Shown here: in pieces, positions 3,183 to 28,307 of the stretch | Numbering within the stretch: position 1 is the first letter of the stretch | How the letters are laid out: the number at the start of each line of letters is the position of its first letter | From: Euglena gracilis | Taxonomy: Eukaryota | Length of the DNA stretch: 64,000 nucleotides | NCBI GenBank assembly: GCA_039621445.1 | Contig: CP154954.1 | Location: 17,452,589-17,516,588, forward strand | Direction of reading: 5' to 3' | Position numbers and translations under genes: made by a program | Notes under the pieces: model-generated | Told to the model about the DNA's origin: nothing | Database searches by the model: none | What the model saw: the letters and a program-made list of their open reading frames with translations, nothing else

Positions 3183-4629
3183 TAAACGTGTTCAGTCCAC
3201 GTTTATCGTCGCTGTACACGTGCACTGAACATGGTTTTTCACGACGCTGTACATCGTGGACCGTGTTGGGCCCAGAAAATAGGTTTAATGGTTGCCAAAT
3301 CACCCCTCAATTGAAAGTTCCTCGCATCAGACGACCAGCGATGACAAATGTATCTGGCCAAACTGTACAGAATGCTCATTCTGAACTTCCAGAAAATGAA
3401 ATGGGGTATCCTAAGTTCAGCCAGTTGTGATCATCTGACCGCAAAATTTAACCCTTGTCTGGTCCAAAACGCTTCCTGAACCCCATAACCAAAAATGTCG
3501 AAAAAAAAAGTGGAAATCCAAAATGTCCAAAAAAATTCACCAAAAATTCTGAATCTGACCAGCAACATATTTCAATGGAATGGAAAGCGACTGCCCTAAA
3601 CGGGCGCCTGAATGGAAATTGAACTGACTGACCTAAACAGGCGCCTGAATGGAAATCGACTGACCTAAATAAATTCAGCCTGAATTCCGTTTAAGTCAGT
3701 AGAAATTCAAGACAGGTGTCGGGCCCAGAAAATAGGTTTTAATGAAATTCCCCCTTTGTTTTTTTGATGTTTTTCAAACTGTTTTTTTTCCCCTTCAAAA
3801 AGCACGTTGTTTTTTTGAAAACAAAAAAATGCTCACTGTGGCTACTATGGCTGACTCTGTCCCCCTGGACGATGGCCTTGTTCGTACCCCCCCCCCTTTT
3901 CATTGCCCCCCCCCCCTTAATTAAGCATTTGGGTTTGGGAAGGAAAATGTTGCACATTTTTGGATCCCCCGCAATTGATATCACCCACATGTCTGCACAG
4001 ATGTTTTTCTTCAAAAAATGTCTTCCGCTCCGCAGATGACCCACACAATCCAGGTTGCTAATCCTTTTTTGAATTTGAACGTTGAACTCAGGTGGGAACC
4101 AAGGGAGGTCAGGTGGGGGGTCCAGACCTGCCCTGGTGAAGTTCATCAATGAAAGTTCACTGGGGATTGGGGGGGCACCCTTGGTTGGTGAACTTCACCG
4201 GTTCACCATTTTGACTGTCCGGAGATATTTTTTGATGCCTGAGAATTTTTGCTGTTTTCCCGACATAAATTACCTTTTCTCAAAATTTCTGAAGAGTTGC
4301 AAAAATGACATTTTCCCCCATTTTGGTCAAATTGCTTTGGTGGTGAACTTCACGGGTGAAGTTTGCCATTACATTGGGCAGAGGGGGGGGAGGGGGTCTA
4401 GTGAAGTTTCAAACGGTGAAGTCCACCATGAGGTTGGGGAGGGTCCAAAATGACCAAAGTCTGATCTCCAATGAATGCTGCTGGGGGGGACATGGGGGTC
4501 CATTTTTTGCCACAAAGGAAGTGGAAGGAGGGGTACACCCCAGAGATGGTGTGCATTCGCAATTTCATACCCAACCCAAAATTGTCTACCTCATGTCAAA
4601 ATTGTTGCTTGTGACACAAAAAATGCCAA

Positions 4630-7664: not shown

Positions 7665-8527
7665 GAGCTCTTTTGTGTTCAGCAGGAAATTATTCAAGAT
7701 TTCGTCGCAAAGCACCGAAAGTCAAAAATGACGTTTTAAAGGGCTTTTTTTTGTGTATTTTGGCCTCAAAAATGAAGAAAAAGGTTGAAAAAATGCATCA
7801 TTTGTGCTTTTGGGTTCGGCCTGTTCTTGGGTGCCAGCCTGGAAGCCGGGTTGGACCAGGGTTTTTTTTTTATTAGTCTTGGACCCCCTCCCCCGGGGGG
7901 AGGGGGGGTAGGGTGGTCCCTCGGACCCCCCTCCCCCCCTGTGGGGGGGGGGTAGGGTGGGGGCTAGTGGGTATATCTTTTTTCGGCGCCGAAGGCGCCG
8001 AAATTTTTTTAAAAGGTGCTATTTTTAGCATTTTTTGCCAATTTCGGGCAAAAGTGGGTGGGTCCCCCCCCGGGACCCCCCCTCCCCCGGGGGCCCCACC
8101 ACAGGGGGGTGGGTGAATGTGTGGATGCTGACCAACACGGGGCTTAAAAAAACACCTGGGAAGGCCCGCAGGCCCGAAGGACCCAGGAGTCACCCTGACT
8201 TCTCAAGCAAAGCCTTCTCCAGAAAAGAAACAGCCCACCAGGGTATTTCTCAAGGACCCCCATGGGCGCATCAGTCCATTGGCCGGCAGAAAAAGGTGCA
8301 GCAAACCCCCCAGGGCGGGTCCTGCGCCTGATCCCCACACAAATGCACAAATGCCCAAATTTCACTCATTTTTTCATAACACCCCATTTGGAACATTATC
8401 AAAGGAGGTGGGAAAATTACACCAGCTTTGCAGTTCGTTGATTAGGGATGATTGGAAGGTCAAATTTTGCGCTGGATCAGTTTTAAACGGCAGCCCGAAA
8501 CTACTGGGCCCCCCCCAGGGGACGGGG

Positions 8528-8530
<3 letters not shown>

Positions 8531-8562
<32 letters not shown>

Positions 8563-11112
8563 TGATTGGTATGGACGAGGAATTCTAGGAATGGGTGGCG
8601 GTGGGTGGGGATGGGAGGGGATGGGAGGGAGGTGGGGGGGTGCCGCAGAGGGGGGAGGCCTCGCACGGTTTTCACGCCCACCTCCAGCCGGTGCGGCCCG
8701 AACTGGAGGGCCGGAGATACCAGCTCCGGCAGGCCGGGGGTGGCACACCTGCGATGTCGCCGCCTCCGCGTCCGTGCTGGTCATGGTCTCCTTCTGCCGC
8801 CGCTGCCGCCGCCGCCCGCCGCGACGATGGCCTTGAAGGGGATCCCACGGGTTGGGATGAGAGGGGATCGGAGGGGGGCCGGCCCTTGCCTCCCTCTCTC
8901 TCTCTCTCTCCCCTCCGCGGTGGTCTCGATGTGGTTGGGGGCTCCGACTCCCCCGACAGTGGCGTTGAGCTTGACATTTTTCCTGCAGCTTCTTCAGCTC
9001 CGCGCTCAGGGCGGAGATGGTGTCCGCCATTCTCTTGATCTCCTTGTGCAGGGCAGCCCCTCGCCTGCTCTGCACCGGCGTCCATACGTCGCCTTCTTCT
9101 CTTCTGCCTCTTGCTTCATCACGGGGTTGGTTGCCCTGCGCACTCCCAGGGCGAGAGGGTCTTGTAGATCTCATGGCGCTTGAACTTTGTGATTCCCCAG
9201 GGCGGTGCCCACGGGTCGATTCCCTGTTGGGTCGCCAAGGGGCTTGGGGCCGGGGCAAATCCCGCTTCGCTTGCTCCCCTGCGGACGGGGTTGGCGGGGC
9301 ACAGGCACCACGCTGCCTGCCACCCGCCCGGACTTGGCTCGGTCTCGCTCCGGGGACGTGGCTCCCAGAGGGTTGGTGGCCCTGGGGGGGGCCGTGGGGG
9401 TGGCGCCTTGGACCGGGGTGGTCGGCCTCCCCGATCCTGGCACCTTCATGCCAGTCGTGCGTCTGGCGCTCGAGGTCCGCGGGGCGCTCGACGTTCTGGG
9501 CTGCTGCGGCTTCTTGCCATTCTTGGATGATGCTCCGCCGCTGGGGGCCGCACGAGGCCCAGACCTGGTTCTGCAGGTCCGGGTCCCATGATTCGTACAT
9601 GGCTTGTCCTCGTCCTGCTTGTCGTGGGTCCTTCAGCACCGCCTTCCACTCTTCGTACTTGGCTCGCCACTCGGCAGGCCACTCACTCAACGAAGTGAAC
9701 TTCCTCTTCTTCGTGGGGCCTTGGGAAGAGGTGTCGTCGTCGGTGGTGTCGCTGGGTGGCGGCGGGGGAGCGGTGAGGAGGAGGCGGTTGGGGGCCTCGA
9801 TGGCGGGAATGGGGAGACCTTGGAGGAGGGCCAAGGAAGACGAGGAGGAGGAGGAGGGGCCGATGGTGAGGGTGTGGAGATGCACATTCTGCACGATGGA
9901 GGGGGGTTGTGGCGGGGAGGGTGGGGGGTAGTGGGGGTTGGGTGCCCGGGCCTCCACGGGGACGGGGACGGGCATGGGGACCCGGACCTCCACGGGGACT
10001 TGCACGGGGACCGGGACGACCCGCTCGATGACCCGATCCACGAAGACAGGCTCCCGCACGGGAACGGGGACCTGCCTCTCGACGATGACGACCCGCTCCT
10101 GGAGGACCTCACGGGTGGGTGGGGGGAGGCATGGGGTTGGGGAGGCGGAGTCCGGGTTGGAGAGAGGGGGGCCTTGGGAGGCTGTGGGGGCCGTTGGGGC
10201 GCTGGGGGATTGGGAGGCGGTGCTTGGCTGCGCTGCAACCCCCTCGAGGGCGTCCGTCTCTGTCTCCATGGCCGTGGGCTGGCAACTCTCAGGCCCGCCC
10301 GGGCTCCCCGGGGGCGAGATCCTTGGCGGCGTCACCCCCGGTTCACCGCCCAGCGTAAACCCCGCTCCGGTGTGGGCCAGCCTGTCGCTTGGGGCGTCCC
10401 CCCTCGGCTCTGAGGCCGGTCCTGGCAGCACGATCACGGACCCGCCCGGGCTCCCTGGGGCTGAGATCCTTGGCGGCGTCACCCCCAGTTCACAGCCCGA
10501 CGTAAACCCCGTCACGGTGTGGGCCAGTCCGTGGCTCGGGGCGTCCCCCTCGCTGTCCTCAGGCCCGCCCGGGCTCCCCGGGGGCGAGATCCTTGGCGGC
10601 GTCACCCCCGGTTCACCGCCCAGCGTAAACCCCGCCCCGGTGTGGGCCGGCCTGGTGCTGCGGCTGTTTGGGGCGTCCCCCTCCTCTTGACTGATTGGTA
10701 GAGGCTCGCCCGGGCTCGCCGGGGGCGGGATCCTTGGCGGCATCACCCCCGGGTCCTTGCCCTTGCTGCTCACGAATTGGGCGCACCTCACCTCTGGGGC
10801 GTCCCCCTCTCTGAGCCCTGGCCAGTGGACGGATCGGGACGCTCCTCTCGGGGCCTGCTGCTTGCCGTGGCGCACGTGGGCCTCCCGGTCGATGATCATC
10901 ACATCCACGTCGGAGGCCTGGGAGGCGGAGGGGGAAGGGGGCGGCATCATCTCGGCCAGCAAGTCGTCGATGCCCCCGGGGAGGGGGGCGGGGTGGCCGA
11001 AGACGGAGAGAAAGTCGGCCTGGGAGGGGGCATGGGCCTCATCGAGGGGGAGGGCTGTGGCCCATGGGGCTGGGGGAGCGCGGTGGGGGCTGGAGTGGAG
11101 CCACTTCCACAC
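8531..11112 (-). CDS. PLE post-RT extension: Pro-rich repeats, PVPV repeat, Trp-rich helical module, 2A-like motif, coiled coil; no stop inside the element
   Basis: Part of the 912-aa open frame 8374..11112; copy B shows WKWLHSSPH is in frame with RT; blocks EWPAEWR, WDxxLQxQVWA, HDWxEGxRIGEAxxPGP and NPWxPLQ are conserved in the divergent family 2 element. Confidence 0.7.
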
Positions 11113-12943
11113 CTTGGAAAACCAGGTGCGGAGCTCACGGACGCGGATGTCGGTGGCATGCCAGCGCTGGAAGAGGAAGGAAGCGGCTCCACACCGACTG
11201 CACCAGGCGGCGAGAGTACCCCCGCCAGATGGCGTTGCGGAAGATGTTGGCCACTGACTGCTTGAAATCCCCCATGTGGCTGCAGGCCATCCGGGCGAAC
11301 TCCAGGCGGCCCATGATGACCCCGCCCAGCTGCTCGGTGGGGGCGGTGGTGGTGGCTAGGGGGTAGCGAACAATGTGGTGGGGGTACTCCTCCTCCCGGT
11401 CGTGGACGGTGGTGTGCACCACGCGGTCCCCGTTGGAATGGCATTGGATGTACACCCGGACGCCCAGGCACACCACGGACTCGCCGGAGCCGGTGGTCTT
11501 GTACTCCATGCCGTACTCGGCTGCCGAGGGGAGGGGCATGGTGGTGGGGTGGACGATGTCGTCGATGTATCGGGACACGGCGGAGGACCGGAGCTGGGGA
11601 GGGAGGGCGTACATGTGGTCGCGCTCCACGGGGTAGCAGGCCAGGTTGGCCAGCTGCGGGGCCGGGGGGAGGCCCATGGGCATGCCCCGGATCTGGCGCC
11701 GGACCCTTCCGCCATTGCAGGTGTAGTTGTTCTGCACCGCCACGGCCACCAGCTCCTTCAGGTCATCCAAGGAGTAGCCGAGGCCATCCCACGACCAGCC
11801 GCCGGTGGTGAGGGACGGTGGGGTGGCGGGGTCCACCCCAGCGGGGGTCTTGGTCTCCCGCACGAAGGCCCAGGCCTCCTTGGCCGACTCCATGGTCCGC
11901 TCGATGATGGCGTCGAAGGTGAAGGCCGTGTACATCGTCGTGAAGTCCGCCGTCTCCAAGCCCCCCGCCAGGATGTCCTTGGAGTGGGTTCGGACCATCC
12001 GGACGAAAGACTCCACGCTGTCGATTCCCCAGAACGCCTTGATGCCCTCCTGCTGTTGCCGCCGCTCGTCCTTTTCCCGGAGGGCGACCTCGATGTGCTT
12101 CAGGAGCGACACCAAAGCCTTGCTCAGGGCATAGAGGGGCTGCCGGGGGGGCTCCTTGGAGGCGGTGGGGGCGGAGGCGGGGGCGGACTCAGAGGCGGGG
12201 GCGGGGGACCCGGGGTCGGGATCGGGGTTCTTGCGGGTCCCGGCAATGAACCGGAACTTCTTCTTCGCTGGCTTCCAGATGCCGTAGTTGTAGACGACAC
12301 CGGCGCCAGTGGGGAAGTGCAACCGCTGGTTGACCTCCGACAGCCGGGCAACCACCTCCCTCCAGGTGTCGGTCACGTCCTCGAACACGGTGGAGTCCGC
12401 CAGGTAGGTGGCCATCTGCTTCTGGTACCAGCGCTTGCAAACGAACATCAGGCCGTGGGGGGCCCGGTCGTCGTGGAGGAAGACGAGGACCTGGTGGGCC
12501 TCCCGCATTTGCTGTGACAGGCCCGGGAAGCCGGTGGGGACCAGCTCTTCTCTGACGGCCGAGCACCGCCAGTTGGTGGTGCAGCGGGCCTCCACGGCGT
12601 CGGCCCACTCGCCCAGCTTCCGGAGGTAGGTGGCGTCGGTGGGGTTGCTGCGCGCTGCCCACTCGGTGTACTGGTTCAGCGCCCGGCGGAGGTCGTGGAG
12701 GACGGTGTCGGGGGGGCCCTCCAGCCGGAACTTCTTCCCCTTGGCCGCCAGGGTTTGCAGGTACGACCATCGCAGCAGCTCGGACTCGTTGCTCACCACG
12801 TGGCCCTCGTGGAAGGCTGCCGGCTCCTTCCGGCGGAGGGCTGTGTGGCACTGGCAGCCCTCGAGGTCGTCGGCCTGCGCGGCGGCCACGTCCAGCTCGC
12901 TGGAGACCTGGGCGTAGTTGCACAGCCACGCCTGCCATTGCGG
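8531..12943 (-). mobile_element. Penelope-like retroelement family 1, copy A (5'-truncated, 3' end in (GA)n)
   Basis: Near-identical reverse complement of ~24313-29235 (without the MITE found in copy B); PLE-type RT motifs; ends ...CCAATCAAGAAGAGAGA(GA)n, seen as the TC run at 8531-8558. Confidence 0.9.
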
Positions 12944-12946
12944 CAC
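11135..12946 (-). CDS. PLE reverse transcriptase domain (copy A, N-terminally truncated)
   Basis: ADFTTMY, IRGMPMGLPPAPQLANL, RYIDDI, CLGV and upstream DDRAPHG (position of the PLE DK motif); frameshift near 11180-11210 relative to copy B. Confidence 0.88.
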   Translation of the reverse strand: MPQWQAWLCNYAQVSSELDVAAAQADDLEGCQCHTALRRKEPAAFHEGHVVSNESELLRWSYLQTLAAKGKKFRLEGPPDTVLHDLRRALNQYTEWAARSNPTDATYLRKLGEWADAVEARCTTNWRCSAVREELVPTGFPGLSQQMREAHQVLVFLHDDRAPHGLMFVCKRWYQKQMATYLADSTVFEDVTDTWREVVARLSEVNQRLHFPTGAGVVYNYGIWKPAKKKFRFIAGTRKNPDPDPGSPAPASESAPASAPTASKEPPRQPLYALSKALVSLLKHIEVALREKDERRQQQEGIKAFWGIDSVESFVRMVRTHSKDILAGGLETADFTTMYTAFTFDAIIERTMESAKEAWAFVRETKTPAGVDPATPPSLTTGGWSWDGLGYSLDDLKELVAVAVQNNYTCNGGRVRRQIRGMPMGLPPAPQLANLACYPVERDHMYALPPQLRSSAVSRYIDDIVHPTTMPLPSAAEYGMEYKTTGSGESVVCLGVRVYIQCHSNGDRVVHTTVHDREEEYPHHIVRYPLATTTAPTEQLGGVIMGRLEFARMACSHMGDFKQSVANIFRNAIWRGYSRRLVQSVWSRFLPLPALACHRHPRP

Positions 12947-13249
12947 CCCCTCCCCCAGGGGTTGGTGCTACGACCCCAGGACCGGCGGCTTAATTTGGGT
13001 ACTCACGCCCCAAGCCTTCGGGTGCCGTCCGTATTTTTCGGCAATTTTTGCCTCTTTCCACACCGAAAGGGCCTTGTCTCGCCCTCCCCAAAGGGTGCTG
13101 TCCCGGAGGGTGCCCCGTAGGTAGTGGACCATTTTTCCGTCCCGCGCTGCCTTGTTTTTGGGGCCGGTTTTTTTCAGCCCCCCCCCTCCCCCACCCCCGG
13201 GAGGGTGACGCAGAGCTCGTTTGTAACGGTCTGCACCACACAGACAAGA

Positions 13250-13322
13250 GCGGTCGGGGACGAGGGTTGGCAGGGTCGTCACCCCTGACGATGCCCCACC
13301 TGCCAGCCTGGGGCGAAACCGC
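13250..13322 (+). ncRNA. Type III hammerhead ribozyme (unit 1)
   Basis: Stem III GCGGT/ACCGC, GTC cleavage triplet (cut after 13255), stem I GGGGACGA/TCGTCACCC, core CTGACGA (13285-13291) plus one extra T, stem II GCCCCA/TGGGGC, GAAA (13315-13318); loops I and II are complementary. Confidence 0.9.
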
Positions 13323-13909
13323 AACACAGACTGACAACACACGCGCCCACACCGACTGACAACACACTTCCCCCACAAGCACACACTCTCGGGTCGGCAA
13401 GGAGTTCCCCCCAAGGAGTTCCCCCAGCAACACCGATTCAGAAGAGAGATTTACGCAGTGACCCTGCGTCCCATGGAGCTTTCCATGGCATTTTTCCCAG
13501 AATTGCATGGCGCGGTTGTTTCGCACCCCCATGCCTCGCCCCCAGCGCCCCATTTTGTGGGCTAAACCCGCGGCAGTTCTACTGAGCAACCGGCGGCTCA
13601 GGCCACCCCCTCCCCCAGGGGTTGGTGCTGCGACCCCAGGACCGGCGGCTTAATTTGGGTACTCGCGCCCCAAGCCTTCGGGTGCCGTCCGTATTTTTCG
13701 GCAATTTTTGCCTCTTTCCACACCGAAAGGGCCTTGTCTCGCCCTCCCCAAAGGGTGCTGTCCCGGAGGGTGCCCCGTAGGTAGTGGACCATTTTTCCGT
13801 CCCGCGCTGCCTTGTTTTTGGGGCCGGTTTTTTTCAGCCCCCCCCCTCCCCCACCCCCGGGAGGGTGACGCAGAGCTCGTTTGTAACGGTCTGCACCACA
13901 CAGACAAGA

Positions 13910-13982
13910 GCGGTCGGGGACGAGGGTTGGCAGGGTCGTCACCCCTGACGATGCCCCACCTGCCAGCCTGGGGCGAAACCGC
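13910..13982 (+). ncRNA. Type III hammerhead ribozyme (unit 2)
   Basis: Same sequence as 13250-13322. Confidence 0.9.
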
Positions 13983-14570
13983 AACACAGACTGACAACAC
14001 ACGCGCCCACACCGACTGACAACACACTTCCCCCACAAGCACACACTCTCGGGTCGGCAAGGAGTTCCCCCCAAGGAGTTCCCCCAGCAACACCGATTCA
14101 GAAGAGAGATTTACGCAGTGACCCTGCGTCCCATGGAGCTTTCCATGGCATTTTTCCCAGAATTGCATGGCGCGGTTGTTTCGCACCCCCATGCCTCGCC
14201 CCCAGCGCCCCATTTTGTGGGCTAAACCCGCGGCAGTTCTGCTGAGCAACCGGCGGCTCAGGCCACCCCCTCCCCCAGGGGTTGGTGCTGCGACCCCAGG
14301 ACCGGCGGCTTAATTTGGGTACTCGCGCCCCAAGCCTTCGGGTGCCGTCCGTATTTTTCGGCAATTTTTGCCTCTTTCCACACCGAAAGGGCCTTGTCTC
14401 GCCCTCCCCAAAGGGTGCTGTCCCGGAGGGTGCCCCGTAGGTAGTGGACCATTTTTCCGTCCCGCGCTGCCTTGTTTTTGGGGCCGGTTTTTTTCAGCCC
14501 CCCCCCCTCCCCCACCCCCGGGAGGGTGACGCAGAGCTCGTTTGTAACGGTCTGCACCACACAGACAAGA

Positions 14571-14643
14571 GCGGTCGGGGACGAGGGTTGGCAGGGTCGT
14601 CACCCCTGACGATGCCCCACCTGCCAGCCTGGGGCGAAACCGC
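14571..14643 (+). ncRNA. Type III hammerhead ribozyme (unit 3)
   Basis: Same sequence as 13250-13322. Confidence 0.9.
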
Positions 14644-15230
14644 AACACAGACTGACAACACACGCGCCCACACCGACTGACAACACACTTCCCCCACAAG
14701 CACACACTCTCGGGTCGGCAAGGAGTTCCCCCCAAGGAGTTCCCCCAGCAACACCGATTCAGAAGAGAGATTTACGCAGTGACCCTGCGTCCCATGGAGC
14801 TTTCCATGGCATTTTTCCCAGAATTGCATGGCGCGGTTGTTTCGCACCCCCATGCCTCGCCCCCAGCGCCCCATTTTGTGGGCTAAACCCGCGGCAGTTC
14901 TGCTGAGCAACCGGCGGCTCAGGCCACCCCCTCCCCCAGGGGTTGGTGCTGCGACCCCAGGACCGGCGGCTTAATTTGGGTACTCGCGCCCCAAGCCTTC
15001 GGGTGCCGTCCGTATTTTTCGGCAATTTTTGCCTCTTTCCACACCGAAAGGGCCTTGTCTCGCCCTCCCCAAAGGGTGCTGTCCCGGAGGGTGCCCCGTA
15101 GGTAGTGGACCATTTTTCCGTCCCGCGCTGCCTTGTTTTTGGGGCCGGTTTTTTTCAGCCCCCCCCCTCCCCCACCCCCGGGAGGGTGACGCAGAGCTCG
15201 TTTGTAACGGTCTGCACCACACAGACAAGA

Positions 15231-15303
15231 GCGGTCGGGGACGAGGGTTGGCAGGGTCGTCACCCCTGACGATGCCCCACCTGCCAGCCTGGGGCGAAAC
15301 CGC
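15231..15303 (+). ncRNA. Type III hammerhead ribozyme (unit 4)
   Basis: Same sequence as 13250-13322. Confidence 0.9.
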
Positions 15304-15881
15304 AACACAGACTGACAACACACGCGCCCACACCGACTGACAACACACTTCCCCCACAAGCACACACTCTCGGGTCGGCAAGGAGTTCCCCCCAAGGAGT
15401 TCCCCCAGCAACACCGATTCAGAAGAGAGATTTACGCAGTGACCCTGCGTCCCATGCAGCATTTTTCCCAGAATTGCATGGCGCGGTTGTTTCGCACCCC
15501 CATGCCTCGCCCCCAGCGCCCCATTTTGTGGGCTAAACCCGCGGCAGTTCTACTGAGCAACCGGCGGCTCAGGCCACCCCCTCCCCCAGGGGTTGGTGCT
15601 GCGACCCCAGGACCGGCGGCTTAATTTGGGTACTCGCGCCCCAAGCCTTCGGGTGCCGTCCGTATTTTTCGGCAATTTTTGCCTCTTTCCACACCGAAAG
15701 GGCCTTGTCTCGCCCTCCCCAAAGGGTGCTGTCCCGGAGGGTGCCCCGTAGGTAGTGGACCATTTTTCCGTCCCGCGCTGCCTTGTTTTTGGGGCCGGTT
15801 TTTTTTCAGCCCCCCCCCTCCCCCACCCCCGGGAGGGTGACGCAGAGCTCGTTTGTAACGGTCTGCACCACACAGACAAGA

Positions 15882-15954
15882 GCGGTCGGGGACGAGGGTT
15901 GGCAGGGTCGTCACCCCTGACGATGCCCCACCTGCCAGCCTGGGGCGAAACCGC
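15882..15954 (+). ncRNA. Type III hammerhead ribozyme (unit 5)
   Basis: Same sequence as 13250-13322. Confidence 0.9.
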
Positions 15955-16070
15955 AACACAGACTGACAACACACGCGCCCACACCGACTGACAACACACT
16001 TCCCCACAAGCACACACTCTCGGGTCGGCAAGGAGTTCCCCCCAAGGAGTTCCCCCAGCAACACCGATTC

Positions 16071-16534
16071 AGAAGAGAGAGAGAGAGAGAGGGGGGAGGA
16101 GAGAGGAGAGAGAGGCGAGAGAGAGAGAAGATGAGAGGAGGGGGGGAGCCGGGAGAAGAAAAGAGAGATGGAGAGGGAGAGGGAGAGAGAGAGGGGAGGG
16201 AGGGGGGGAGGCGCGGTCGAGGGGGAGAGGGTGAAGAGAAGGGGGGGGGGGGGAGGGGGGGGGGGGGGGTGGGGGAAGGGGGGGGGGTGGCGACGGGGGG
16301 GGGGGGGGGGGCTGAGGGTGGGGGAAAGGGGGGGAAGAGAGGGGGGGGAACGCGGAGGGGCAGGGGCGGGGCAGAGAGGGGGGGCGGGGGGGGGAGGGGC
16401 TGTGGAGCGGGACGGGGGGGGGGTGGAGAGAGGGAGGTGGCGTGGAGGGGGTGGGGTGGAGGGAGAGAAGAGGGGAGGGGGGGTGGTGGGGAGGAAGGGA
16501 GGGGGGAGAAAGGGCGGTGGATGGAGCGGGAGAG

Positions 16535-16640: not shown

Positions 16641-16859
16641 GGGTGAAGAAGCAGAGCAGGCGACAACGCTGCGATCGCAGCAGAAGAGGGGCGAAGGCGG
16701 AGAGAGGCCGAGAAGATGGTACGGAGAGAGAGGTGTACAAGCTCCACCCAGAGCCGGAGAGGGGCAAGAGAGAGCGGAGGTGGGCAGAGCCAGCAGAGGC
16801 ACAAACCCATGCAGAGAGCCGAGAGAAGAGGGGGAGAGACTGGGGACGCAGGTGCGACC

Positions 16860-19700
16860 GAACGCCACGCTGGTGGAGGGGCACGTCCTCTCCACAGACC
16901 CCGACGAGCTGGCGTCCCCGTACCTGAGGGAGATCCTCAGCAAGGGGAAGAAGTACCGCCTGCGGCTGCCCATCTCGTCAGTGCTGGCGCGCCTCGACGA
17001 CGGCCTCCGCCAGTACGTGGAGTACAAGACCAAGGCCCACCAAGACGACGAGGGCTACCGCACGGGCCTGCTGAAGTGGGCGGAAGCGGTGCGGGCACGC
17101 GCAGAGGCCCGCATCACGCAGGCGGCGAGGGAGCACCCCCACGAGCCAGACGGGTACCCCAACCTGCAGGAGCAGCTCAGCGCAGCCAAGAGGGCGCTGG
17201 TGTTCGGGCCGGAGGACAGGGCACCGCACGCCCTGTTCTTCGCCTGCGGGCGGCTGTTCGCGGCGAAGCTGCACGAGCGGCTAGAAGCGACCGGGGCATT
17301 CGTCCCAGACGCCCGCCCGCCGGCGGACCTGCTGGAGCAGATCAAGGCCCTGAACGACGAGCTGCAGCTCCTCCACCACCCACGGCTGCCATACCTCTAT
17401 GGAGCATGGAAGGCCAAGAAGCAAGCCTTCCGCTGGATTGCCGGGACGGCCCGGAACCAGGACGAAGGCGACCATGAGGAAGAAGAAGGAAAGCCAAAGA
17501 ACGCCCTCTCCGAAGTGGGCGGCCTCATGGTCAAAGTGCTCCAAGTGGTGATGGCAACCCTGCGGCGAAAGGACCGGGAAGCAGTGGGCAAAGGCAACAA
17601 GTCCCGCTACTGGATCATCGAGGACATCGATGAGTTCGTGCAGGAGTTCCGGGTGCTGGCGCAAAGCCGAGCGCTGAGCGCCGTGCCGTGGGCAACGTAT
17701 GACTTCACCACCATGTACGAGGCGCTGGAGCACGAGCACCTGGTGCACGGGGTGATGGCAGCGGTGAAGGAGGCCTGGGAGGAGGAAACCATCGGCAAAG
17801 CACGGGACACGGGCCAACATCCACGAGACGTGGACCTACGCCTGGGGGCAGGGGGCTGGCACGAGGCGGCCAAGGTGAAGGACGCCCCCGGAATGCCGTG
17901 GTTCACGCTGCCGAGGGTGGAGGACACCCTGCGCAAGATGCTGGCCAACCTGTACGCGGTGAACGGCGGGGTGGTGCGGAAGCAGCAAAAGGGAGTACCC
18001 ATGGGGCTGGAGTGCTCCCCGCAGCTGGCCAACCTGTACGCCTACGCCGTGGAGAGCAGGTGGGTGGACCGAACGGCACCGACCAACGTCCTGATGCGGC
18101 GGTACATCGACGACATCATCGTCATGGGACCAGATGCCCTCACCCCCGGGAAAGGGCTGCCCACCGAGGAGGACTACGGGATGCAGTACAAGTCCACCGC
18201 CGAGGAGCCCCACAGCCTCATCTACCTGGGGGTGCGGCTGTTCGTGGACGACCGCGGACAAGCCCACTCGGTCCTGCACGACCGTGCAGTGGACTACCCC
18301 ATCCGGGTGGACCGATACCCCGAGGGCACAACAGTGGCCAACCCAGCCCAGCTGGCAGGCGTCATCATGGGCCGGTTGGTGGCAGCCCAACGGACATGCA
18401 GCCGCATGGATCTGTTCCAAGACGCGGTGGCCGGCATCTTCACCCACGCGCATCGCAGGGGATACCCACGGAGAATGGTGCACTCCACGTGGACCCGGTT
18501 CCTGTGGCGGTACTGGGACGCGGCATCCGTCACCACGCGGGAACTGCGGGCGTGGTTCCACGACGCGTGGCGAAAGGTGACGGAAGCGGAGGAGGGGGGA
18601 CAGCGCAAGCCGGCCCCCAAGTGGCCAACGTGGGAAGCCCGCGTACCACTGCCGCGGGACAGTGGCAGGGGAACACCACAGCACCCACCACCGCGGGACG
18701 CAGCAGGGCACCAGGCAGCATGTGAGGGGACCCCCCAGCCCCAAGCAGCACAACGGGAGCCCATCGACGACCTCATCGACCTCACCACGCCACCGGGGTC
18801 CCCGCCACACGCAAGCCCAGGCGACGGGGAGCCGCAGGGCGGCTCCTCGCAACCAGCCAGCAGCTACCGCCCGATGGCACCGCCGCTGATACCGTACCCC
18901 CTCCCACCGAGCGGCAGGGGAGGGGTGGGGCCAACCAGGACCGGACGACCAGGACAGAGGGGGGCAGGGCAGAAAGGCAACATACCGCCGAGAAGGCCGT
19001 GGTCTTCACCGGTGTACCCCACGCGGGGGGCTGCCAGCTCGTCGTCGACTTGGGCCGAAAAGGCTGTGCGATGGGGCTGTCCGCCTTCCGAGTCGCTGCC
19101 ACTGCACGCCCCTCTCGCACAGGAGCGTGCAGTGGGGGGCGCACTCTCCCCACGAGCACAGCCACCTCACGTCCCTGTCGCCGAAACACGGTGCACAGCG
19201 AGCACACAGGAGCGGGAGGTGGCCGGCGCTTCCCCCACACCCACCACACAGACATCAGCGGCGACGCCAACCAGCCAGCAGCCACCAACAACCACAGTGC
19301 AGCAGCCGCTGCAAGTGGTCCAGGTGCCCCAACCGTACCCGGTGCCGGTGCCGGTGCCCACCCCCTGTCCCGTGCCGGTGTACGTCGAGCGCGTGGTGCC
19401 GGTACAGATCCCAGTGCCATACCACGTACCCGTGCCGGTGGTCGTGGAGCGCGCAGTGCCCACACCGTACCCGGTGCCGGTGCACGTGGAGCGCCTGGTG
19501 CCAGTGGAACGCCCACTCCCGCTGCCGTGGCTGGACACCGGGGCAGTGACCGCGCTGCTCCGGGGGGCGAGCGCACAGCTGCCCATGCCAGTCCAACGCC
19601 TGATCCAAGCGGTCAGCAGCACCACCGGGCCGACGAGGGCCCGGTGGCAGCGGGAGATGGGGCGACCACAGCCTTACCCGGCGGAAGGAGCAGTGGACCC
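16860..19700 (+). CDS. PLE family 2 reverse transcriptase and PVPV repeat region
   Basis: Inside ORF 16168..20736: EGHV..KGKKYRL, EDRAPHA, WKAKKQAFRWIAGT, DFTTMY, YIDD, QLAGVIMGRL, RRGYPRRMV all align with family 1. The coding frame appears to switch near 19630-19790. Confidence 0.8.
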
Positions 19701-19779
19701 CCAACGGGCACTGCTCGTCGAAATGGTGCGATGGATCTGGCAGCAGCAACAGCAGCAGCAAGAGAGCCGCCCCTCACCC

Positions 19780-22029
19780 ATCGCGCCACGCTGGCGATCG
19801 AAGACGCACCCACCGCAGCCACACCCACATCGCCCGCGGCAGGCACCACCCCGGCAGGAGCAGCACCACCACCAAGCAACAACCCACCACCACCCGCAAC
19901 GGAAGGGGCCAGCACCACCGCCACGCCAGCAGCACCAGGCAGCACCAGCCCCGCGCCCGCAGCAGCAGCAGCAAGCAGCACGCCGGCCCCACCAACACCA
20001 ACCACAAGCGCCACACCGCCACCGAGCGCCACCCCCACGCAGGAAGCACAAAGCACCACAGCCACCGAGGAGGCACCGGCAAGAAGCGACCCCATGGCCA
20101 CAGACCGACTCCTGGGCAACAAGCGCCCAGTGTCGGTGGTGGTGGAGGAGGCGGCCACACCACAGCCCACCGAAGGGGACGATGCCTCGCAGGCAACCCA
20201 ACCAAGCCAACGCAAGAAGAGGCTGTACACACGCTTGGCCGAGTGGCCGGCAGAGTGGCGGGAGCAGTACGAGCGGTTCAAGGCCACGCCCAAAGCAAGC
20301 GACCGCCACGAGATGTGGCAGGGGTGGGACCAAAGCCTCCAAGACCAAGTGTGGGCAGCCGTCGCCGACAAGCGGAGGGACGAGATCCGCCGATGGAAGG
20401 CGAGGGAGAACGAAGGCCCACCAACCCAAGCAGAAGGCCAAGCCAGAAGCACGCGAGAAGAGAGGCGGAGGTCCCACACCGGAGCGGCAGACGAAGGTGG
20501 AGAACCCACCAGCCACGACTGGCAAGAAGGCCAGCGCATCGGGGAGGCGAAGCAGCCAGGCCCAGAAGAGGAAGGGTCGGCAGCGGACCCCCCCGAGGGG
20601 CAAGCGGGGAGCCCAAAGAATCACCCGCGACCGGCCTGGGGCGGCTCTCCAGGGGTACCTGCCGATCACCGGCAGGGCGTGTCCCGGCACGCCGTCAATC
20701 GGGACCCCAACAAAACAGAACCCACCAGCACCATGAACACAAAAATCACAGGCATGCCAGGCAATGACGGCCTGCCCGGCGCAGAGGACCTCTGCCCCGG
20801 GTGGCAGGCGGGGCGCCAGCCTAAGAACCCGCAACCGATCTGGGGCGGATCTCCAGGGGTACCTGCCAATCACTGGCAGGGCGTGGCCCGACACGCCGTC
20901 AAGTGGGACGAAGGAGCAGAAGAACCGTGCCCCAGAAGCAGAAGCCAAGACCAGCACGACTGGAAGAAAGGGGCACGGATCGGGGAAGCAAAGAACCCCG
21001 GACCACCCCAAAGAGGGTACCAACAGCCCAACCCAAAAGGGGGGGCCCAGCGAGGAGGACAACAAACAGGAAAAGGACAGACACAGCCCAGGAAAGGAGG
21101 CAAGGGTGGCAAAGGAAACGTCACCCCACAAGGAAGCCGGCAGGGCCAACCCCAAGGAGAGGGCTGGCAAACAGCACAAAGCACCGGCCGAAAACGCCTC
21201 CAAAAGCGCCTCCAAGGGCTCCAACGGGCGCTGCAAGAAATGCAGCAAGAGCTCGACCAATGGCGGCAGAATCCGCCCCCGCAGCAGCAGCAGCAACGAC
21301 CGGACCTAAGGGACGACAACCCCTGGGCCCCCCTGCAGCCACAGCAACAACGCCGGGAGCGGAAGAGATCCATTGGGTTTGAACCCCCAAGCCGCCAAGC
21401 GAGCAGGCAGCCGCCAGAGCAACGAGGAGGACGCGGAGGACGGGGAGGACGAGGTCGTGGACGAGGCGACGGAGCCCAAGATCGACACGGCCATGGAGAT
21501 CCCCGAAACCCGCGTGCCGGGCACGGAACTTGCCAGCCGTGCCCGTCATGCGGGTACCAGAACGAGGTGTACCACGCCGACGGGGCCCTGGGGGGTGGGG
21601 GGCTCGCCGGCGGTGGCATCCCCGGGCCCCCGGGCCCTGGCGCGGGGTCCGGGGGTGGCGTGAAAGGCGTGCGGAGCCCATGGGGGGAGCGCCGCCCCCC
21701 CAGCACGCACGCACGCACGGGGACCGCCACACACCCACCAGCAGGCAAGGGAGGGGGAGGGGGAAGGGGCAGCCCAGCGCGCCAGACAGACGGGCATCCG
21801 GAGGACCGGCGGCCAAGGGAGGGGGGAGGGGGAAAGGGATGGGCAGCCCAGAGCGCCAGACAGACGGGCAGCCACCGGGGGACAGGAGGCCAAGGGAGGG
21901 GGGAGGGGGAAAGGGAAAGGCAGCCCACGTGGAGAGAGAGAGGGGGAGGGGAGAGAGGAGGACAGACAGAGGGGAGAGGGGGGAGAGGGAGGAGAGAGGG
22001 AGAGAGGGAGGAGAGAGGAGAGGAGAGGT

Positions 22030-22030
<1 letters not shown>
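19780..22030 (+). CDS. PLE family 2 post-RT extension with two 2A-like motifs and a coiled coil
   Basis: Frame of ORF 18999..22190: LAIEDAP, KKRLYTRLAEWPAEWREQYE, HDWQEGQRIGEAKQPGP, HDWKKGARIGEAKNPGP, LQKRLQGLQRALQEMQQEL, NPWAPLQ, GIPGPP; open into the (GA)n run. Confidence 0.7.
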
Positions 22031-22184
<154 letters not shown>

Positions 22185-22764: not shown

Positions 22765-22829
<65 letters not shown>

Positions 22830-22841
<12 letters not shown>

Positions 22842-25800
22842 CAAGGGCCGGCCCCCCTCCGATCCCCTCTCATCCCAACCCATGGGATCCCCTTCAAGGC
22901 CATCGTCGCGGCGGACGGCGTCGGCAACGGCGGCAGAAGGAGACCATGACCAGCACGGACGCCGAGGCGGCGACATCGCAGGTGTGCCACCCCCGGCCTG
23001 CCGGAGCTGGTATCTCCGGCCCTCCAGTTCGGGCCGCACCGGCTGGAGGTGGGCGTGCAACCCGTGCGAGGCCTCCCCCCTCTGCGGCACCCCCCCACCT
23101 CCCTCCCCATCCCCTCCCATCCCCACCCCCACCCACACCCAGAATCCCCCGTCCATACCAATCAAGAAGAGAGATTTCCGCAGTCCCTGCGGCTCGGGGA
23201 GCTTTCCCCGGGGTCCACCGTGAATTGCCTGGCGAGGTTTCTCGCACCCCCAGGCCTCCCCCCGAGCGCCCTCCCGGGCAACCCTCTTCCCGAAGGCCCC
23301 CCAGGCCGTCCCACTCCCGTGATGACCGTGCCCTCCCCATCGCCGAGCCCTACGACAAGCACGACCCCCAGCCGTCCCGCCACCGCCGCAACGAGGGGCA
23401 GTGGAGCTGGCAGGACCACCTGCAGTGGATGCAACGCAGCTGGGGGCGGCGATCTTGGCGCAACAAGACCATGCGCAGGGTCCTGCAGCTCCGCTCCAGC
23501 GACTCAGCCAACGCCGCCGTGGACTGGGGCGACGTGGCCGCCCTGTGGGATGCCCCCGGCTGGATTTACGCCCTCTTCCACTTCCCCACGGGGCGACTGT
23601 ACGTCGGGCAGACCACCCGGAAGGTTTACAAGCGGGCCAAGGAGCACTGGTGGAGCCGGGGGCGCTGCGCCGACGCCCTGCACGACGCCCTGGCCAACGA
23701 CCCCACCCCCTTCTCCTTCCTCATGATCCCCATCGAGAGGCTCCCCTCACCCGACAGCTTCCCCCGGGCTGACCGCCGCGCCCTCGCCCGCCGGGATGCC
23801 CTCGCCCGCGAGCGCAAGTGGGTGGGCCTCCTCAACTCCATGTGGCCCCATGGCTTCAACGCCGCCTACCCCGGCTTCCCCGTCAGCCGGAAGGTGCTCC
23901 GCCGCCAGCACACCCTCCCCAGCCCCGATCCCGCCCCCACATCCCAAGGCGACCCCCCGCCCAGCCCCGACCTAACCAAGTGGCTCCGTCGCTGCCACCA
24001 AGGGGACTCCAGCGCCCTGGCGGAGGCACGCTCCTGGGGCAAGGCGCGGCTGTGTTCCACCCTGGACTGGCTGCAGCAGCACGTCCCGGACGACGAGCGG
24101 CGCTCCGGCCACCTCTCGCTGGAGTGCAAGCTGGTGGAGCTGATCAAGGCGAAGAGGAAGGAGGCCCCCGAGCGGCAGTTCCTGAAGTTCTCCTACTCCA
24201 ACAACGGCGCCCGCCACCTGGAGCTGCGCAAGGTGTTGCGGGAAGAGGCCGTCTACAAGCTCCACCCCAACCCGGACGTCGCCGCAGCCATCATGGTCTG
24301 CGACAAGTTCGCCCCGCAATGGCAGGCGTGGCTCTGCAATTACGCCCAGGTCTCCAGCGAGCTGGACGTGGCCGCCGCACAGACCGACGACCTCGAGGGC
24401 TGCCAGTGCCACACAGCCCTCCGCCGGAAGGAGCCGGCAGCCTTCCACGAGGGCCACGTGGTGAGCAACGAGTCAGAGCTGCTGCGGTGGACGTACTTGC
24501 AGACCCTCGCGGCCAAGGGGAAGAAGTTCCGGCTGGAGGGCCCCCCTGACACCGTTCTCCATGACCTCCGCCGGGCGCTGAACCAGTACACCGAGTGGGC
24601 AGCGCGCAGCAACCCCACCGACGCCACCTACCTCCGGAAGCTGGGCGAGTGGGCCGATGCCGTGGAGGCCCGCTGCACCACCAACTGGCGGTGCTCGGCC
24701 ATCAGAGAAGAGCTGGTCCCCACCGGCTTCCCGGGCCTGTCACAGCAAATGCGGGAGGCTCACCAGGTCCTCGTCTTCCTCCACGACGACCGGGCCCCCC
24801 ACGGCTTGATGTTCGTTTGCAAGCGCTGGTACCAGAAGCAGATGGCCACCTACCTGGCGGACTCCACCGTGTTCGAGGACGTGACCGACACCTGGAGGGA
24901 GGTGGTTGCCCGGCTGTCGGAGGTCAACCAGCGGTTGCACTTCCCCACTGGCGCCGGTGTCGTCTACAACTACGGCATCTGGAAGCCAGCGAAGAAGAAG
25001 TTCCGGTTCATTGCCGGGACCCGCAAGAACCCCGACCCCGACCCCGGATCCCCCGCCCCCGCCTCGGAGTCCGCCCCCGCCTCCGCCCCCACCGCCTCCA
25101 AGGAGCCACCCCGGCAGCCCCTCTATGCCCTGAGCAAGGCTTTGGTGTCGCTCCTGAAGCACATCGAGGTCGCCCTCCGGGAAAAGGACGAGCGGCGGCA
25201 ACAGCAGGAGGGCATCAAGGCGTTCTGGGGAATCGACAGTGTGGAGTCTTTCGTCCGGATGGTCCGAACCCACTCCAAGGACATCCTGGCGGGGGGCTTG
25301 GAGACGGCGGACTTCACGACGATGTACACGGCCTTCACCTTCGACGCCATCATCGAGCGGACCATGGAGTCGGCCAAGGAGGCCTGGGCCTTCGTGCGGG
25401 AGACCAAGACCCCCGCTGGGGTGGACCCTGCCACCCCACCGTCCCTCACCACCGGCGGCTGGTCGTGGGATGGCCTCGGCTACTCCTTGGATGACCTGAA
25501 GGAGCTGGTGGGCGGTGCAGAACAACTACAGCTGCAATGGCGGAAGGGTCCGGCGCTAGATCCGGGGCATGCCCATGGGCCTCCCCCGGCCCCGCAGCTG
25601 GCCAATCTGGCCTGCTACCCCGTGGAGCGCGACCACATGTACGCCCTCCCTCCCCAGCTCCGGTCCTCCGCCGTGTCCCGATACATCGACGACATCGTCC
25701 ACCCCACCACCATGCCCCTCCCCTCGGCAGCCGAGTACGGCATGGAGTACAAGACCACCGGCTCCGGCGAGTCCGTGGTGTGCCTGGGCGTCCGGGTGTA

Positions 25801-26265
25801 CATCCAATGCCATTCCAACGGGGACCGCGTGGTGCACACCACCGTCCACGACCGGGAGGAGGAGTACCCCCACCACATTGTCCGCTACCCCCTAGCCACC
25901 ACCACCGCCCCCACCGAGCAGCTGGGCGGGGTCATCATGGGCCGCCTGGAGTTCGCCCGGATGGCCTGCAGCCACATGGGGGATTTCAAGCAGTCAGTGG
26001 CCAACATCTTCCGCAACGCCATCTGGCGGGGGTACTCCCGTCGGCTGGTGCAGTCGGTGTGGAGCCGCTTCCTCTTCCAGCGCTGGCATGCCACCGACAT
26101 CCGCGTCCGTGAGCTCCGCACCTGGTTTTCCAAGGTGTGGAAGTGGCTCCACTCCAGCCCCCACCGCGCTCCCCCAGCCCCATGGGCCACAGCCCTCCCC
26201 CTCGATGAGGCCCATGCCCCCTCCCAGGCCGACTTTCTCTCCGTCTTCGGCCACCCCGCACCCCC
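22830..26265 (+). CDS. PLE polyprotein: N-terminal GIY-YIG endonuclease, Cys/His linker, RT (locally frameshifted)
   Basis: GWIYALFHFPTGRLYVGQT...RAKEH...ERKWVGLLNSMWPHGFN (23558-23860) matches the GIY-YIG pattern including R, H, E, N residues; CQCH...HEGH linker; DFTTMY; YIDD. The GMPMG motif is out of frame through compensating indels. EN-before-RT order is that of Naiad/Chlamys-type PLEs. Confidence 0.85.
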
Positions 26266-27787
26266 CCCTCCCCGGGGGCATCGACGACTTGCTGGCCGAG
26301 ATGACGCCGCCCCCTTCCCCCTCCGCCTCCCAGCCCTCCGACGTGGATGTGATGATCATCGACCGGGAGGCCCACGTGCGCCACGGCAAGCAGCAGGCCC
26401 CGAGAGGAGCGTCCCGATCCGTCCACTGGCCAGGGCTCAGAGAGGGGGACGCCCCAGAGGTGAGGTGCGCCCAATTCGTGAGCAGCAAGGGCAAGGACCC
26501 GGGGGTGATGCCGCCAAGGATCCCGCCCCCGGCGAGCCCGGGCGAGCCTCTACCGATCAGTCAAGAGGAGGGGGACGCCCCAAACAGCCGCAGCACCAGG
26601 CCGGCCCACACCGGGGCGGGGTTTACGCCGGGCAGTGAACCGGGGGTGACGCCGCCAAGGATCCCGCCCCCGGGGAGCCCGGGCGGGCCTGAGGACAGCG
26701 AGGGGGACGCCCCGAGCCACGGACTGGCCCACACCGTGACGGGGTTTACGTCGGGCTGTGAACTGGGGGTGACGCCGCCAAGGATCTCAGCCCCAGGGAG
26801 CCCGGGCGGGTCCGTGATCGTGCTGCCAGGGCCGGCCTCAGAGCCGAGGGGGGACGCCCCAAGCGACAGGCTGGCCCACACCGGAGCGGGGTTTACGCTG
26901 GGCGGTGAACCGGGGGTGACGCCGCCAAGGATCTCGCCCCCGGGGAGCCCGGGCGGGCCTGAGAGTTGCCAGCCCACGGCCATGGAGACAGAGACGGACG
27001 CCCTCGAGGGGGTTGCAGCGCAGCCAAGCACCGCCTCCCAATCCCCCAGCGCCCCAACGGCCCCCACAGCCTCCCAAGGCCCCCCTCTCTCCAACCCGGA
27101 CTCCGCCTCCCCAACCCCATGCCTCCCCCCACCCACCCGTGAGGTCCTCCAGGAGCGGGTTGTCATCATCGAGAGGCAGGTCCCCGTTCCCGTGCGGGAG
27201 CCTGTCTTCGTGGATCGGGTCATCGAGCGGGTCGTCCCGGTCCCGGTGCAAGTCCCCGTGGAGGTCCGGGTCCCCATGCCCGTCCCCGTCCCCGTGGAGG
27301 TCCGGGTACCCATCCCCATCTACCTCCCTCCCTCCGCACCACAAGCCCCCTCCATCGTGCAGAATGTGCATCTCAACGCACTCACCATCGGCCCCTCCTC
27401 CTCCTCGTCTTCCTTGGCCCTCCTCCAAGGTCTCCCCATTCCCGCCATCGAGGCCCCCAACCGCCTCCTCCTCACCGCTCCCCCGCCACCACCCAGCGAC
27501 ACCACCGACGACGACACCTCTTCCCAAGGCCCCACGAAGAAGAGGAAGTTCACTTCGTTGAGTGAGTGGCCTGCCGAGTGGCGAGCCAAGTACGAAGAGT
27601 GGAAGGCGGTGCTGAAGGACCCACGAGAAGTAGGACGAGGACAAGCCATGTACGAATCATGGGACCCGGACCTGCAGAACCAGGTCTGGGCCTCGTGCGG
27701 CCCCCAGCGGCGGAGCATCATCCAAGAATGGCAAGAAGCCGCAGCAGCCCAGAACGTCGAGCGCCCCGCGGACCTCGAGCGCCAGAC

Positions 27788-28307
27788 CAGGGAATTTCTT
27801 AAGGACCCCCCGGGGGGGGGGGGGGGTCCAGCCTCCGGCTGGCAAAAAGGCTGCTGGCTGGATTTGAGCTGCTGGCTGGACCCCCCCCCCCGGGGGGGTG
27901 GGGGGGGGGGGGGGGGGGGGGGGGTCCGGGGCTGGAGCGGGCTGGGCTGGGCTGGGTCGAGGAAAAACAAAATTTTCTAACACATTTTGGCCATTTTCGA
28001 CATTTTGATGGGTGGAGCTAGATCAAGGCTGGGGGGCTGTGATGGAGGGGCTGTGATGAGGGGGAAAAATGCAGGGATAAGTGAGCTGGACAGCCCGGTT
28101 GGCTGGCCGGCCTGCGGCCGGCTGGGCCGGCCTTCGGCCGGCTGGCCCGGCCTCCGGCCGGGCTGGACCCGACTTTATTTCACTCGACCCCCCGGGGGGG
28201 GGGGGCTCCCAGCCCAAATTTGGGCTGCTGGCTGGATTTGAGCTGCTGGCTGGCTGGACCCCCCCCCCCCGGGGGGTAGGGTACCCTCCGGCTTAAGAAA
28301 TTCCCTG
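27788..28307. mobile_element. hAT-like MITE inserted in PLE copy B
   Basis: Perfect 16-bp TIR CAGGGAATTTCTTAAG; 8-bp TSD CGCCAGAC (27780-27787, 28308-28315); copy A has the empty site. Confidence 0.93.

Follow-up and report, generated by a model that had tools for sequence, protein, structure and literature searches.

The window analyzed here is a 64,000-nt stretch of Euglena gracilis contig CP154954.1 (assembly GCA_039621445.1, positions 17,452,589 to 17,516,588, forward strand). A GC-rich island (60–70% GC) spans about 8.5–29.3 kb within surrounding host DNA of about 50% GC, and repeat analysis combined with inspection of the ends resolved five pieces inside it (Table 1). Copy A is 92–99% identical to 24314-29242 and breaks off at exactly the point where the array, starting in the middle of a unit, begins. 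At this junction (12943/12944), the minus-strand copy A and the plus-strand array meet head-to-head by their truncated 5′ ends, an arrangement that could stem from a single event in which each target strand was extended along a different RNA template. Low-complexity sequence rich in G and GA follows the array tail (16096 to about 16650), and element C ends in 77-nt tandem repeats followed by about 126 GA repeats (region 21749-22184). The pseudo-LTR (pLTR) of copy B is evident from the identity of 22818-23117 with 28867-29166, at a repeat spacing of 6049. The (GA)n tails of copies A and B (8534-8570 and 29213-29236) both point outward to unique host DNA. Three to four direct repeats of 116–147 nt lie 3′ of the RT at 26489-26964 and 10287-10762; the peptides they encode are proline-rich and repeated (..GVTPPRIPPPGSPGGP..). 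Elsewhere, the window holds about 56 copies of an 11-nt repeat (GTCCTGGGGGG) at 44208-44817 and many short repeats containing poly-G/C.

Copy B encodes, in this order, GIY-YIG (GWIYALF..GRLYVGQT), CxC, and RT (YIDDIV) segments. The Pfam GIY-YIG domain matches residues 8-45 of a conserved 831-aa query with an E value of 0.0077, below the curated cut-off. RVT_1 is detected in 15 of the 18 aligned relatives (best E 1.9e-6) and in element C (E 1e-7); copy B itself gives no RVT_1 match at E ≤ 0.1. Residues C289 and C291 are nearly invariant in the alignment of relatives (A2), and copy B reads GCQCH, the CxC of the EN-RT linker. The island shows the hallmarks of a Penelope-like element (PLE), namely a pseudo-LTR, an inverted truncated partner (copy A), and (GA)n at all ends. 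On the strength of the GIY-YIG/CxC/RT order and these hallmarks, we assign copy B to the N-terminal-EN PLEs of the Naiad/Chlamys group. Judged by eye alone, it is probably Chlamys-like rather than Naiad; the check, made on P0001, found a single Cys in the EN region, and the Naiad criterion is CCHH in the EN with CX2-5CxxC upstream. There are 21 relatives of the copy B protein among public metagenome proteins, and a metagenome scan for the PLE protein returned 22 loci at 22–54% identity.

The array had been labeled a satellite when the sequence was first read. It is instead a non-autonomous PLE sharing its junction ends with copy B, and one of a known kind, as head-to-tail multicopy insertions are known for non-autonomous Chlamys elements (PMC8557442, in excerpt).

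Table 1. Positions of the elements, tracts, hairpins, and hammerhead-like motifs (window coordinates, except where a metagenomic locus is named)
Feature	Position	Strand	Description
PLE copy A	8534-12943	minus	5′-truncated, (GA)n at 3′ end, head-to-head with array
Non-autonomous PLE array	12944-16095	plus	4.7 head-to-tail units of 660 bp, (GA)n tail
Element C	about 16650-22184	plus	5′-truncated PLE of a related family; (GA)n tail 21932-22184
Copy B pseudo-LTR	22841-23174	plus	same sequence as 28890-29223, the 3′ end of the unit
Copy B full unit	23175-29236	plus	GIY-YIG, CxC, RT; body to 29223, then (GA)n tail
Array tract	13440-13449; also 14100-14109, 14761-14770, 15421-15430	plus	AGAAGAGAGA
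Array module, copy 1	13450-13534	plus	TTT, H1, H2 (GCUU loop), 16-nt linker, H3
Copy 1 spacer	13450-13452		TTT
Copy 1 H1	13453-13469		ACGCAG/CTGCGT
Copy 1 H2	13471-13488		CCATGGA-GCTT-TCCATGG
Copy 1 linker	13489-13504		GAATT at its end
Copy 1 H3	13505-13534		GCATGG..CCATGC
H3 interior of array module			CGCGGUUGUUUCGCACCC
Identical array module copies	14110-14194, 14771-14855	plus	
Damaged array module	15431-15505	plus	H2 destroyed, 12 nt replaced by 2 nt
Copy B tract	23165-23174	plus	at pLTR/main-body junction
Copy B module	23175-23255	plus	TTT, H1, H2, linker, H3
Copy B spacer	23175-23177		TTT
Copy B H1	23178-23192		CCGCAG/CTGCGG
Copy B H2	23193-23212		GCTT loop
Copy B linker motif	23222-23226		GAATT
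Copy B H3	23227-23255		GCCTGG..CCAGGC
Type III hammerhead-like motif in array unit	13250-13322	plus	GCGG-UC cut after 13255, CUGACGA 13285-13291, GAAA 13315-13318, CCGC
Repeats of the hammerhead-like motif	13910-13982, 14571-14643, 15231-15303, 15882-15954	plus	
Type III hammerheads of relatives	L001 1584-1660; L008 about 3313-3389; L011 1134-1211		27–28 bits with Hammerhead_3

The junction tract and its three hairpins

Four array junctions and one site in the full-length copy B carry AGAAGAGAGA followed by TTT and three hairpins (H1, H2, and H3), which together with the TTT spacer we call the module. Searching for AGAAGAGAGATTT gives five matches, starting at 13440, 14100, 14761, and 15421 in the array and at 23165 in copy B, and none elsewhere; five matches were reached by 0 of 100 shuffles. 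The motif and hairpins thus lie where the sequence-only reading had placed them, offset by one base (tract start 13440), and its report that the last array copy has lost hairpin 2 also holds (junction 15421). Outside this region the two elements have little in common. They can be aligned only for about 25–30 nt before the junction and about 100–105 nt after it, and blastn reports two matching segments and no others, one of 101 nt starting at the junction (76%, E 1.6e-13) and one of 30 nt running up to it.

RNAalifold applied to the array and copy B sequences returns H1, H2, and H3. Among its 26 pairs, four are changed on both sides and one goes from C:G to U:G. The two modules differ by 19 substitutions over 84 ungapped columns, nine of which fall in stems and break no pair; just 2 of 200,000 random placements preserve the stems as well. 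The compensatory stem changes that had been proposed between the array and copy B are therefore present, with pairing kept at all nine substitutions. The MFE fold of the array module consists of the three hairpins (z −2.6), and the copy B module folded alone favors a competing fold (z −0.9). Two additional helices were considered and dropped: pairing of the tract and spacer with the H2-H3 linker (GAUUU with GAAUU) does no better than shuffled linkers in seven of seven lineages, and the GAG/CUC closing helix drawn by RNAalifold is just 3 bp long, with 4 informative rows. The module matches no Rfam family at E ≤ 10, ARAGORN finds 0 tRNA genes in 8000-30000, and the PDB profile search returned low-complexity matches only.

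Sequencing runs add further variants of this region. Contig 13 of X10 (23151-23658) has 22 of its 24 differences at or past 23284, which we count in favor of the docking reading proposed below. At 23174, contigs of X10 and X16 switch to sequences that end in ..CACTGCAAGGGG and may represent other partners, and an X20 RNA contig that joins at 23238 holds a third variant of the H2-linker-H3 region. As to coding, the copy B frame is open over 22946-23650, from an ATG in the pseudo-LTR (MTST..) across the junction and module into the nuclease, with no in-frame ATG between the module and the conserved EPYDKH motif. The start codons of two relatives, L002 (also MTST..) and L007, come after the module, unlike that of copy B.

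Insertions end at the tract. The sequence-only reading had made this claim for the GA motif, and it is borne out at four ends, those of copy A (minus strand, about 8534-8570), copy B (29213-29236), the array (from 16074), and element C (from 21932), together with 23 contigs of DNA run X1 that depart from the copy B sequence at 23174 into (GA)n. Word depth in X1 drops 5- to 15-fold past 23174. The internal junctions hold (GA)3, whereas the runs at the four insertion ends are much longer. For element C, a full-length relative is available in L011 (76% nucleotide identity over 867 nt), which carries tract, module, and hammerhead: the 3′ region of element C matches L011 837-941, and its insertion end corresponds to the L011 tract that continues into TTC and the module. 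All sequencing runs were compared as contigs, from which RNA ends are not readable. An intron search across the copy B junction found no RNA joint in the X20, X10, and X16 contigs, X20 being without cover at 23084-23200.

Distant relatives and hammerhead motifs

Three metagenomic PLE families with 47–49% protein identity also have the module, in the sense strand and 5′ of the ORF, and two further families (L016 and L011) have weaker or partial copies. Its consensus is a short dinucleotide tract, 2–4 nt, H1, H2 with a GCNN loop, and H3 with GGU..CACCC. A covariance model built from the two window sequences alone and run without filters matched L002 (25.9 bits, E 3e-6), L007 (14 bits), and L001/L008 (about 11 bits), each time upstream of the ORF and on the sense strand. 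With L002 added to the model, the scores of L007 and L001/L008 rise to 15.8, 13.4, and 14.1 bits, and the next match over 64.5 kb lies at 9.2 bits. False matches within the window score 12–17 bits (up to 16.8), a range into which L007, L001/8, L016, and L011 (9.6–16 bits) fall. The window matches at 32912-33023 (−), 62789-62885 (+), and 8102-8203 (−) were rejected as poly-G/C or partial look-alikes lacking the tract or H3. Because covariance scores alone were insufficient proof, we wrote a structural descriptor, and the standing of these four relatives comes from the descriptor, their position and strand, and the flanking tract.

The looser form of the descriptor, which asks for a GCNN loop on an H2 stem of 6 bp or more, a linker of 12–20 nt, and an outer H3 stem of at least 5 bp around GGU-N5-8-CACC, finds exactly eight sites in 257 kb: the three intact array copies, copy B, L002, L007, L001, and L008. 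Its background is 0 matches in 40 simulated sets and 2 in 200. A stricter form, derived from the array, copy B, and L002 only, adds L001 and L008 as its sole extra matches in the same 257 kb. Alignment A7 (nine rows, seven distinct, from five lineages) was fitted to the model, which favors pairing; 97.6% of its cells are paired, and 15 of the 26 pairs are changed on both sides. These values are reached by 0 of 500 shuffles, and slid alignments are 37–46% paired. The behavior of the covariation in a larger alignment had been set beforehand as one test that could refute the proposal, and the covariation increases, with two-sided change at those 15 pairs. The conserved positions are mainly paired, with few invariant unpaired bases, and copy B, L002, and L001/8 have G:U pairs in H2 that are compatible with the sense strand only. 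MFE folds reproduce the hairpins in L002 (z −3.2), L007 (z −2.2), L011 (z −2.5), and L001 (z −1.0). These comparisons support the view that the three hairpins are a real, selected structure common to the autonomous PLE and its tandem derivative.

Of the weaker or partial copies, L016 3254-3326, located 2.5 kb downstream of the end of an ORF, reads (TG)4, ACT, H1, and H2 (GCUU loop, one A.C mismatch) before it is cut by the contig end, and matches L002 in blastn at 75.7% over 74 nt. L011 1375-1470 has GAGAAGAGAGA-TTC(A) followed by three hairpins with neither the GCNN loop nor CACCC, and scores 9.6 bits. L001 overlaps L008 in a tandem arrangement with units of about 5.4 kb. The covariance model found no module in L004 and L018, for which upstream sequence is present, nor was one found in 13 further loci. 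The tract, which is (GA)3 in the window and (TG)4 or (TC)3 in relatives, ends 2–4 nt before H1 in seven of seven lineages and exactly 3 nt before it in five. This fixed spacing agrees with the earlier claim that the structure lies directly 3′ of the insertion-end tract.

Hammerhead-like motifs are a separate feature of several of these elements. Each unit of the array contains the core pattern CUGACGA..GAAA, which the sequence-only reading had overlooked. Within 257 kb, a type III descriptor, ordered as helix III, UH cut, helix I, core, helix II, and GAAA, matches the five array units, L001, L008, and L011 and nothing further, with 2 matches in 300 simulated sets. Short Rfam searches with Hammerhead_3 gave 27.3 bits for L001 (E 8e-4) and 28.2 bits for L011 (E 5e-4), the gathering score being 48.5. 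The array motif is not called by Rfam and its MFE fold is an alternative rod; it resembles the L011 and L001 hammerheads, and we describe the array unit as carrying a putative type III hammerhead. The predicted cut lies 5′ of the tract by 194 nt in the array, about 150 nt in L001, and about 235 nt in L011, and the insertion ends do not coincide with it. The hammerhead core was not found in the copy B pseudo-LTR or, as a pattern, in the module regions 13450-13560 and 23175-23280. The idea that the module is itself a hammerhead was rejected on the absence of an Rfam match and of a CUGANGA/GAAA core and on its coexistence with a predicted hammerhead in three lineages; since the core is missing and the two coexist, the module is neither a hammerhead nor simply the replacement of one. 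The clade of N-terminal-EN PLEs has been reported as mostly devoid of canonical hammerheads, and L001, L008, and L011 hold type III ones.

A candidate docking site for the RT

We take the module to be a conserved cis-acting RNA at the 5′ unit boundary of Chlamys-like N-terminal GIY-YIG PLEs and of their tandem non-autonomous derivatives, and propose, partly by analogy, that it may be an RT docking site fixing the internal start of cDNA at the adjacent tract. We give this reading a probability of roughly 0.5. A role in mobilization is suggested because a non-coding parasite keeps the module with compensating changes while sharing otherwise only the last 30 nt with copy B. On a transcript running across a head-to-tail junction, the module would sit 2–4 nt 3′ of (GA)3, (UG)4, or (UC)3. 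The RT/EN protein would dock on it and begin cDNA synthesis internally, on the neighboring tract, so that new copies end at the tract. The module would be copied only when synthesis continues past the next upstream junction, and such run-on would give the 6-kb element its pseudo-LTRs and turn the 660-nt element into multi-unit arrays. Long (GA)n tails may grow by slippage on the tract. Copies of the copy B type have their sole tract-plus-module near the RNA 5′ end, where internal initiation would yield a copy of the pseudo-LTR and no more; the source would then have to carry a module 3′ of a complete unit. Among the loci examined, the array and the L001/L008 tandem show this arrangement, as L016 probably does, its module lying downstream of a stretch with an ORF, and no others do.

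Biochemical data are available for PAc, a Poseidon PLE of Anolis carolinensis studied in vitro in 2024 (PMC11167929). Given a multi-copy RNA template, its RT initiates at an internal position about 90 nt downstream of the hammerhead cut and depends on RNA as far as +172, which the authors took to hold a protein-binding motif. The start sites match the ends of genomic insertions, and the hammerhead need not cleave (PMC11167929). Like the module here, the RNA required in PAc closely follows the pLTR/unit junction and is 3′ of the hammerhead. In our lineages with a predicted hammerhead, the order is hammerhead, 150–240 nt, tract, and module, and this shared order favors docking with initiation on the tract. 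PAc differs in belonging to another PLE clade, with a C-terminal EN, and in starting inside the ORF in an AC-rich stem-loop that lacks homology to the target, and neither a tract nor a three-hairpin consensus was reported for it.

Other functions can be envisaged for the same structure. As a 5′ UTR, an internal promoter, or a junction-spanning intron, it would act on transcription, splicing, or translation; Penelope and Chlamys-3_cRei have their TSS in the pLTR, and an intron with an internal promoter spans the pLTR/body boundary (PMC8557442, in excerpt). The start codon follows the module in L002 and L007, and a non-autonomous element needs a promoter too. We nonetheless find an expression element unlikely: covariation with G:U pairs indicates a folded sense RNA and not duplex promoter DNA, the array has no ORF to translate and still keeps the module, and the constant spacing to the insertion-end tract would be left unexplained. 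Cleavage between the tract and the NNN spacer, by the RNA itself or by a host nuclease, could alternatively expose the tract as an RNA 3′ end for target annealing, as proposed for hammerheads beside telomeric repeats in EN-minus PLEs. The precise junction, identical in five of five copies, would suit such an end-processing signal, and reverse-complement telomeric repeats adjoin the hammerheads of Athena/Coprina (PMC8557442, in excerpt). It is a quite improbable role for an RNA that matches no Rfam ribozyme and whose conserved positions are mainly paired, with few invariant unpaired bases, the more so as three lineages already have a predicted hammerhead 150–240 nt upstream and cleavage is dispensable in PAc (PMC11167929).

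The hairpins might also matter as DNA, extruded or single-stranded, serving as the target of the element's own nuclease, so that copies home into junctions and build tandems. PAc nicks its own ORF-pLTR junction and the Penelope EN requires a "tail" sequence (PMC11167929), and arrays and nests are present in the window. However, the G:U pairs would be G.T mismatches in a sense DNA hairpin and A.C in the complementary strand, and the insertion ends border unique host DNA at 8533 and 29237, which makes homing more improbable still. There is finally the view that the module has no function. Template switching in quasi-palindromes, during replication or reverse transcription, can generate paired changes, and the independent lineages are few. 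That the architecture persists across families of 47–49% protein identity with unrelated stem sequences, and is kept by a non-autonomous element, makes this hardly credible.

Known systems offer partial parallels for a docking site of this kind. Stringent LINE/SINE pairs such as eel UnaL2/UnaSINE1 share a 3′ stem-loop and a short repeat tail at which the RT starts, possibly with slippage. The likeness is that autonomous and non-autonomous partners share a stem-loop adjoining a short tandem-repeat tract; the UnaL2/UnaSINE1 stem-loop, however, sits on the 5′ side of the tail and is the first to be copied, whereas the module lies 3′ of the tract and would not be copied in the first pass. Telomerase RNA places its template next to TERT-binding structures, and by analogy the module is a structured RNA, proposed to bind RT, beside a short repeat "template". 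PLE RTs are the sister group of TERT (PMC8557442, in excerpt). Unlike telomerase RNA, the module shows no pseudoknot or CR4/5-like junction, and its template would belong to a mobile RNA through which copying continues, reiterative copying being a conjecture. One can go further and imagine that PLEs carry a telomerase-like unit, a 6–8 nt repeat "template" tract plus an RT-binding three-hairpin domain, with the RT initiating internally on the tract and copying it reiteratively, so that long (GA)n or (TG)n ends are at least partly RT-made tails; we regard this as possible but rather doubtful. Long microsatellite runs at PLE insertion ends have so far been read as target preference. RT-made tails would fit the outward direction of the tails, which adjoin unique host DNA as (TC)n at 8534 (plus-strand reading) and as (GA)n at 29236, and would fit the contrast between internal (GA)3 and the far longer runs at the four insertion ends.

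Among non-autonomous elements, the MRC1-type Chlamys derivatives likewise consist of short, ORF-less, head-to-tail units that share ends with an autonomous PLE, with similarity at the 3′ ends (PMC8557442, in excerpt); the larger piece shared by the array is the roughly 100-nt module after the junction. Animal non-LTR retrozymes carry hammerheads, as does the array in putative form (bioRxiv 10.64898/2026.07.22.740005, in excerpt). PLE pseudo-LTR hammerheads are also structured RNAs near the unit junction of tandem transcripts, and the module differs from them in having neither a CUGANGA/GAAA core nor a three-way junction. The papers and passages covered here describe microsatellite bias, pseudo-LTRs, head-to-tail non-autonomous elements, and hammerheads but no three-hairpin module beside an element-encoded tract; the supplementary consensus sequences and HHR_core marks of PMC8557442 may bear on this.

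The mobilization of PLEs is the least understood among the three retrotransposon classes, and the sole biochemical PLE study found an RNA requirement just 3′ of the internal start with no structure or consensus defined. A covariation-backed module common to autonomous and non-autonomous partners and to distant families provides a mutable candidate for the RNA handle of the RT. With it, one can test why propagation of PLEs requires tandem copies, how "retrozyme-like" tandem arrays originate, and whether the microsatellite association reflects targeting or RT-made tails, a question that bears on the link between PLEs and telomerase.
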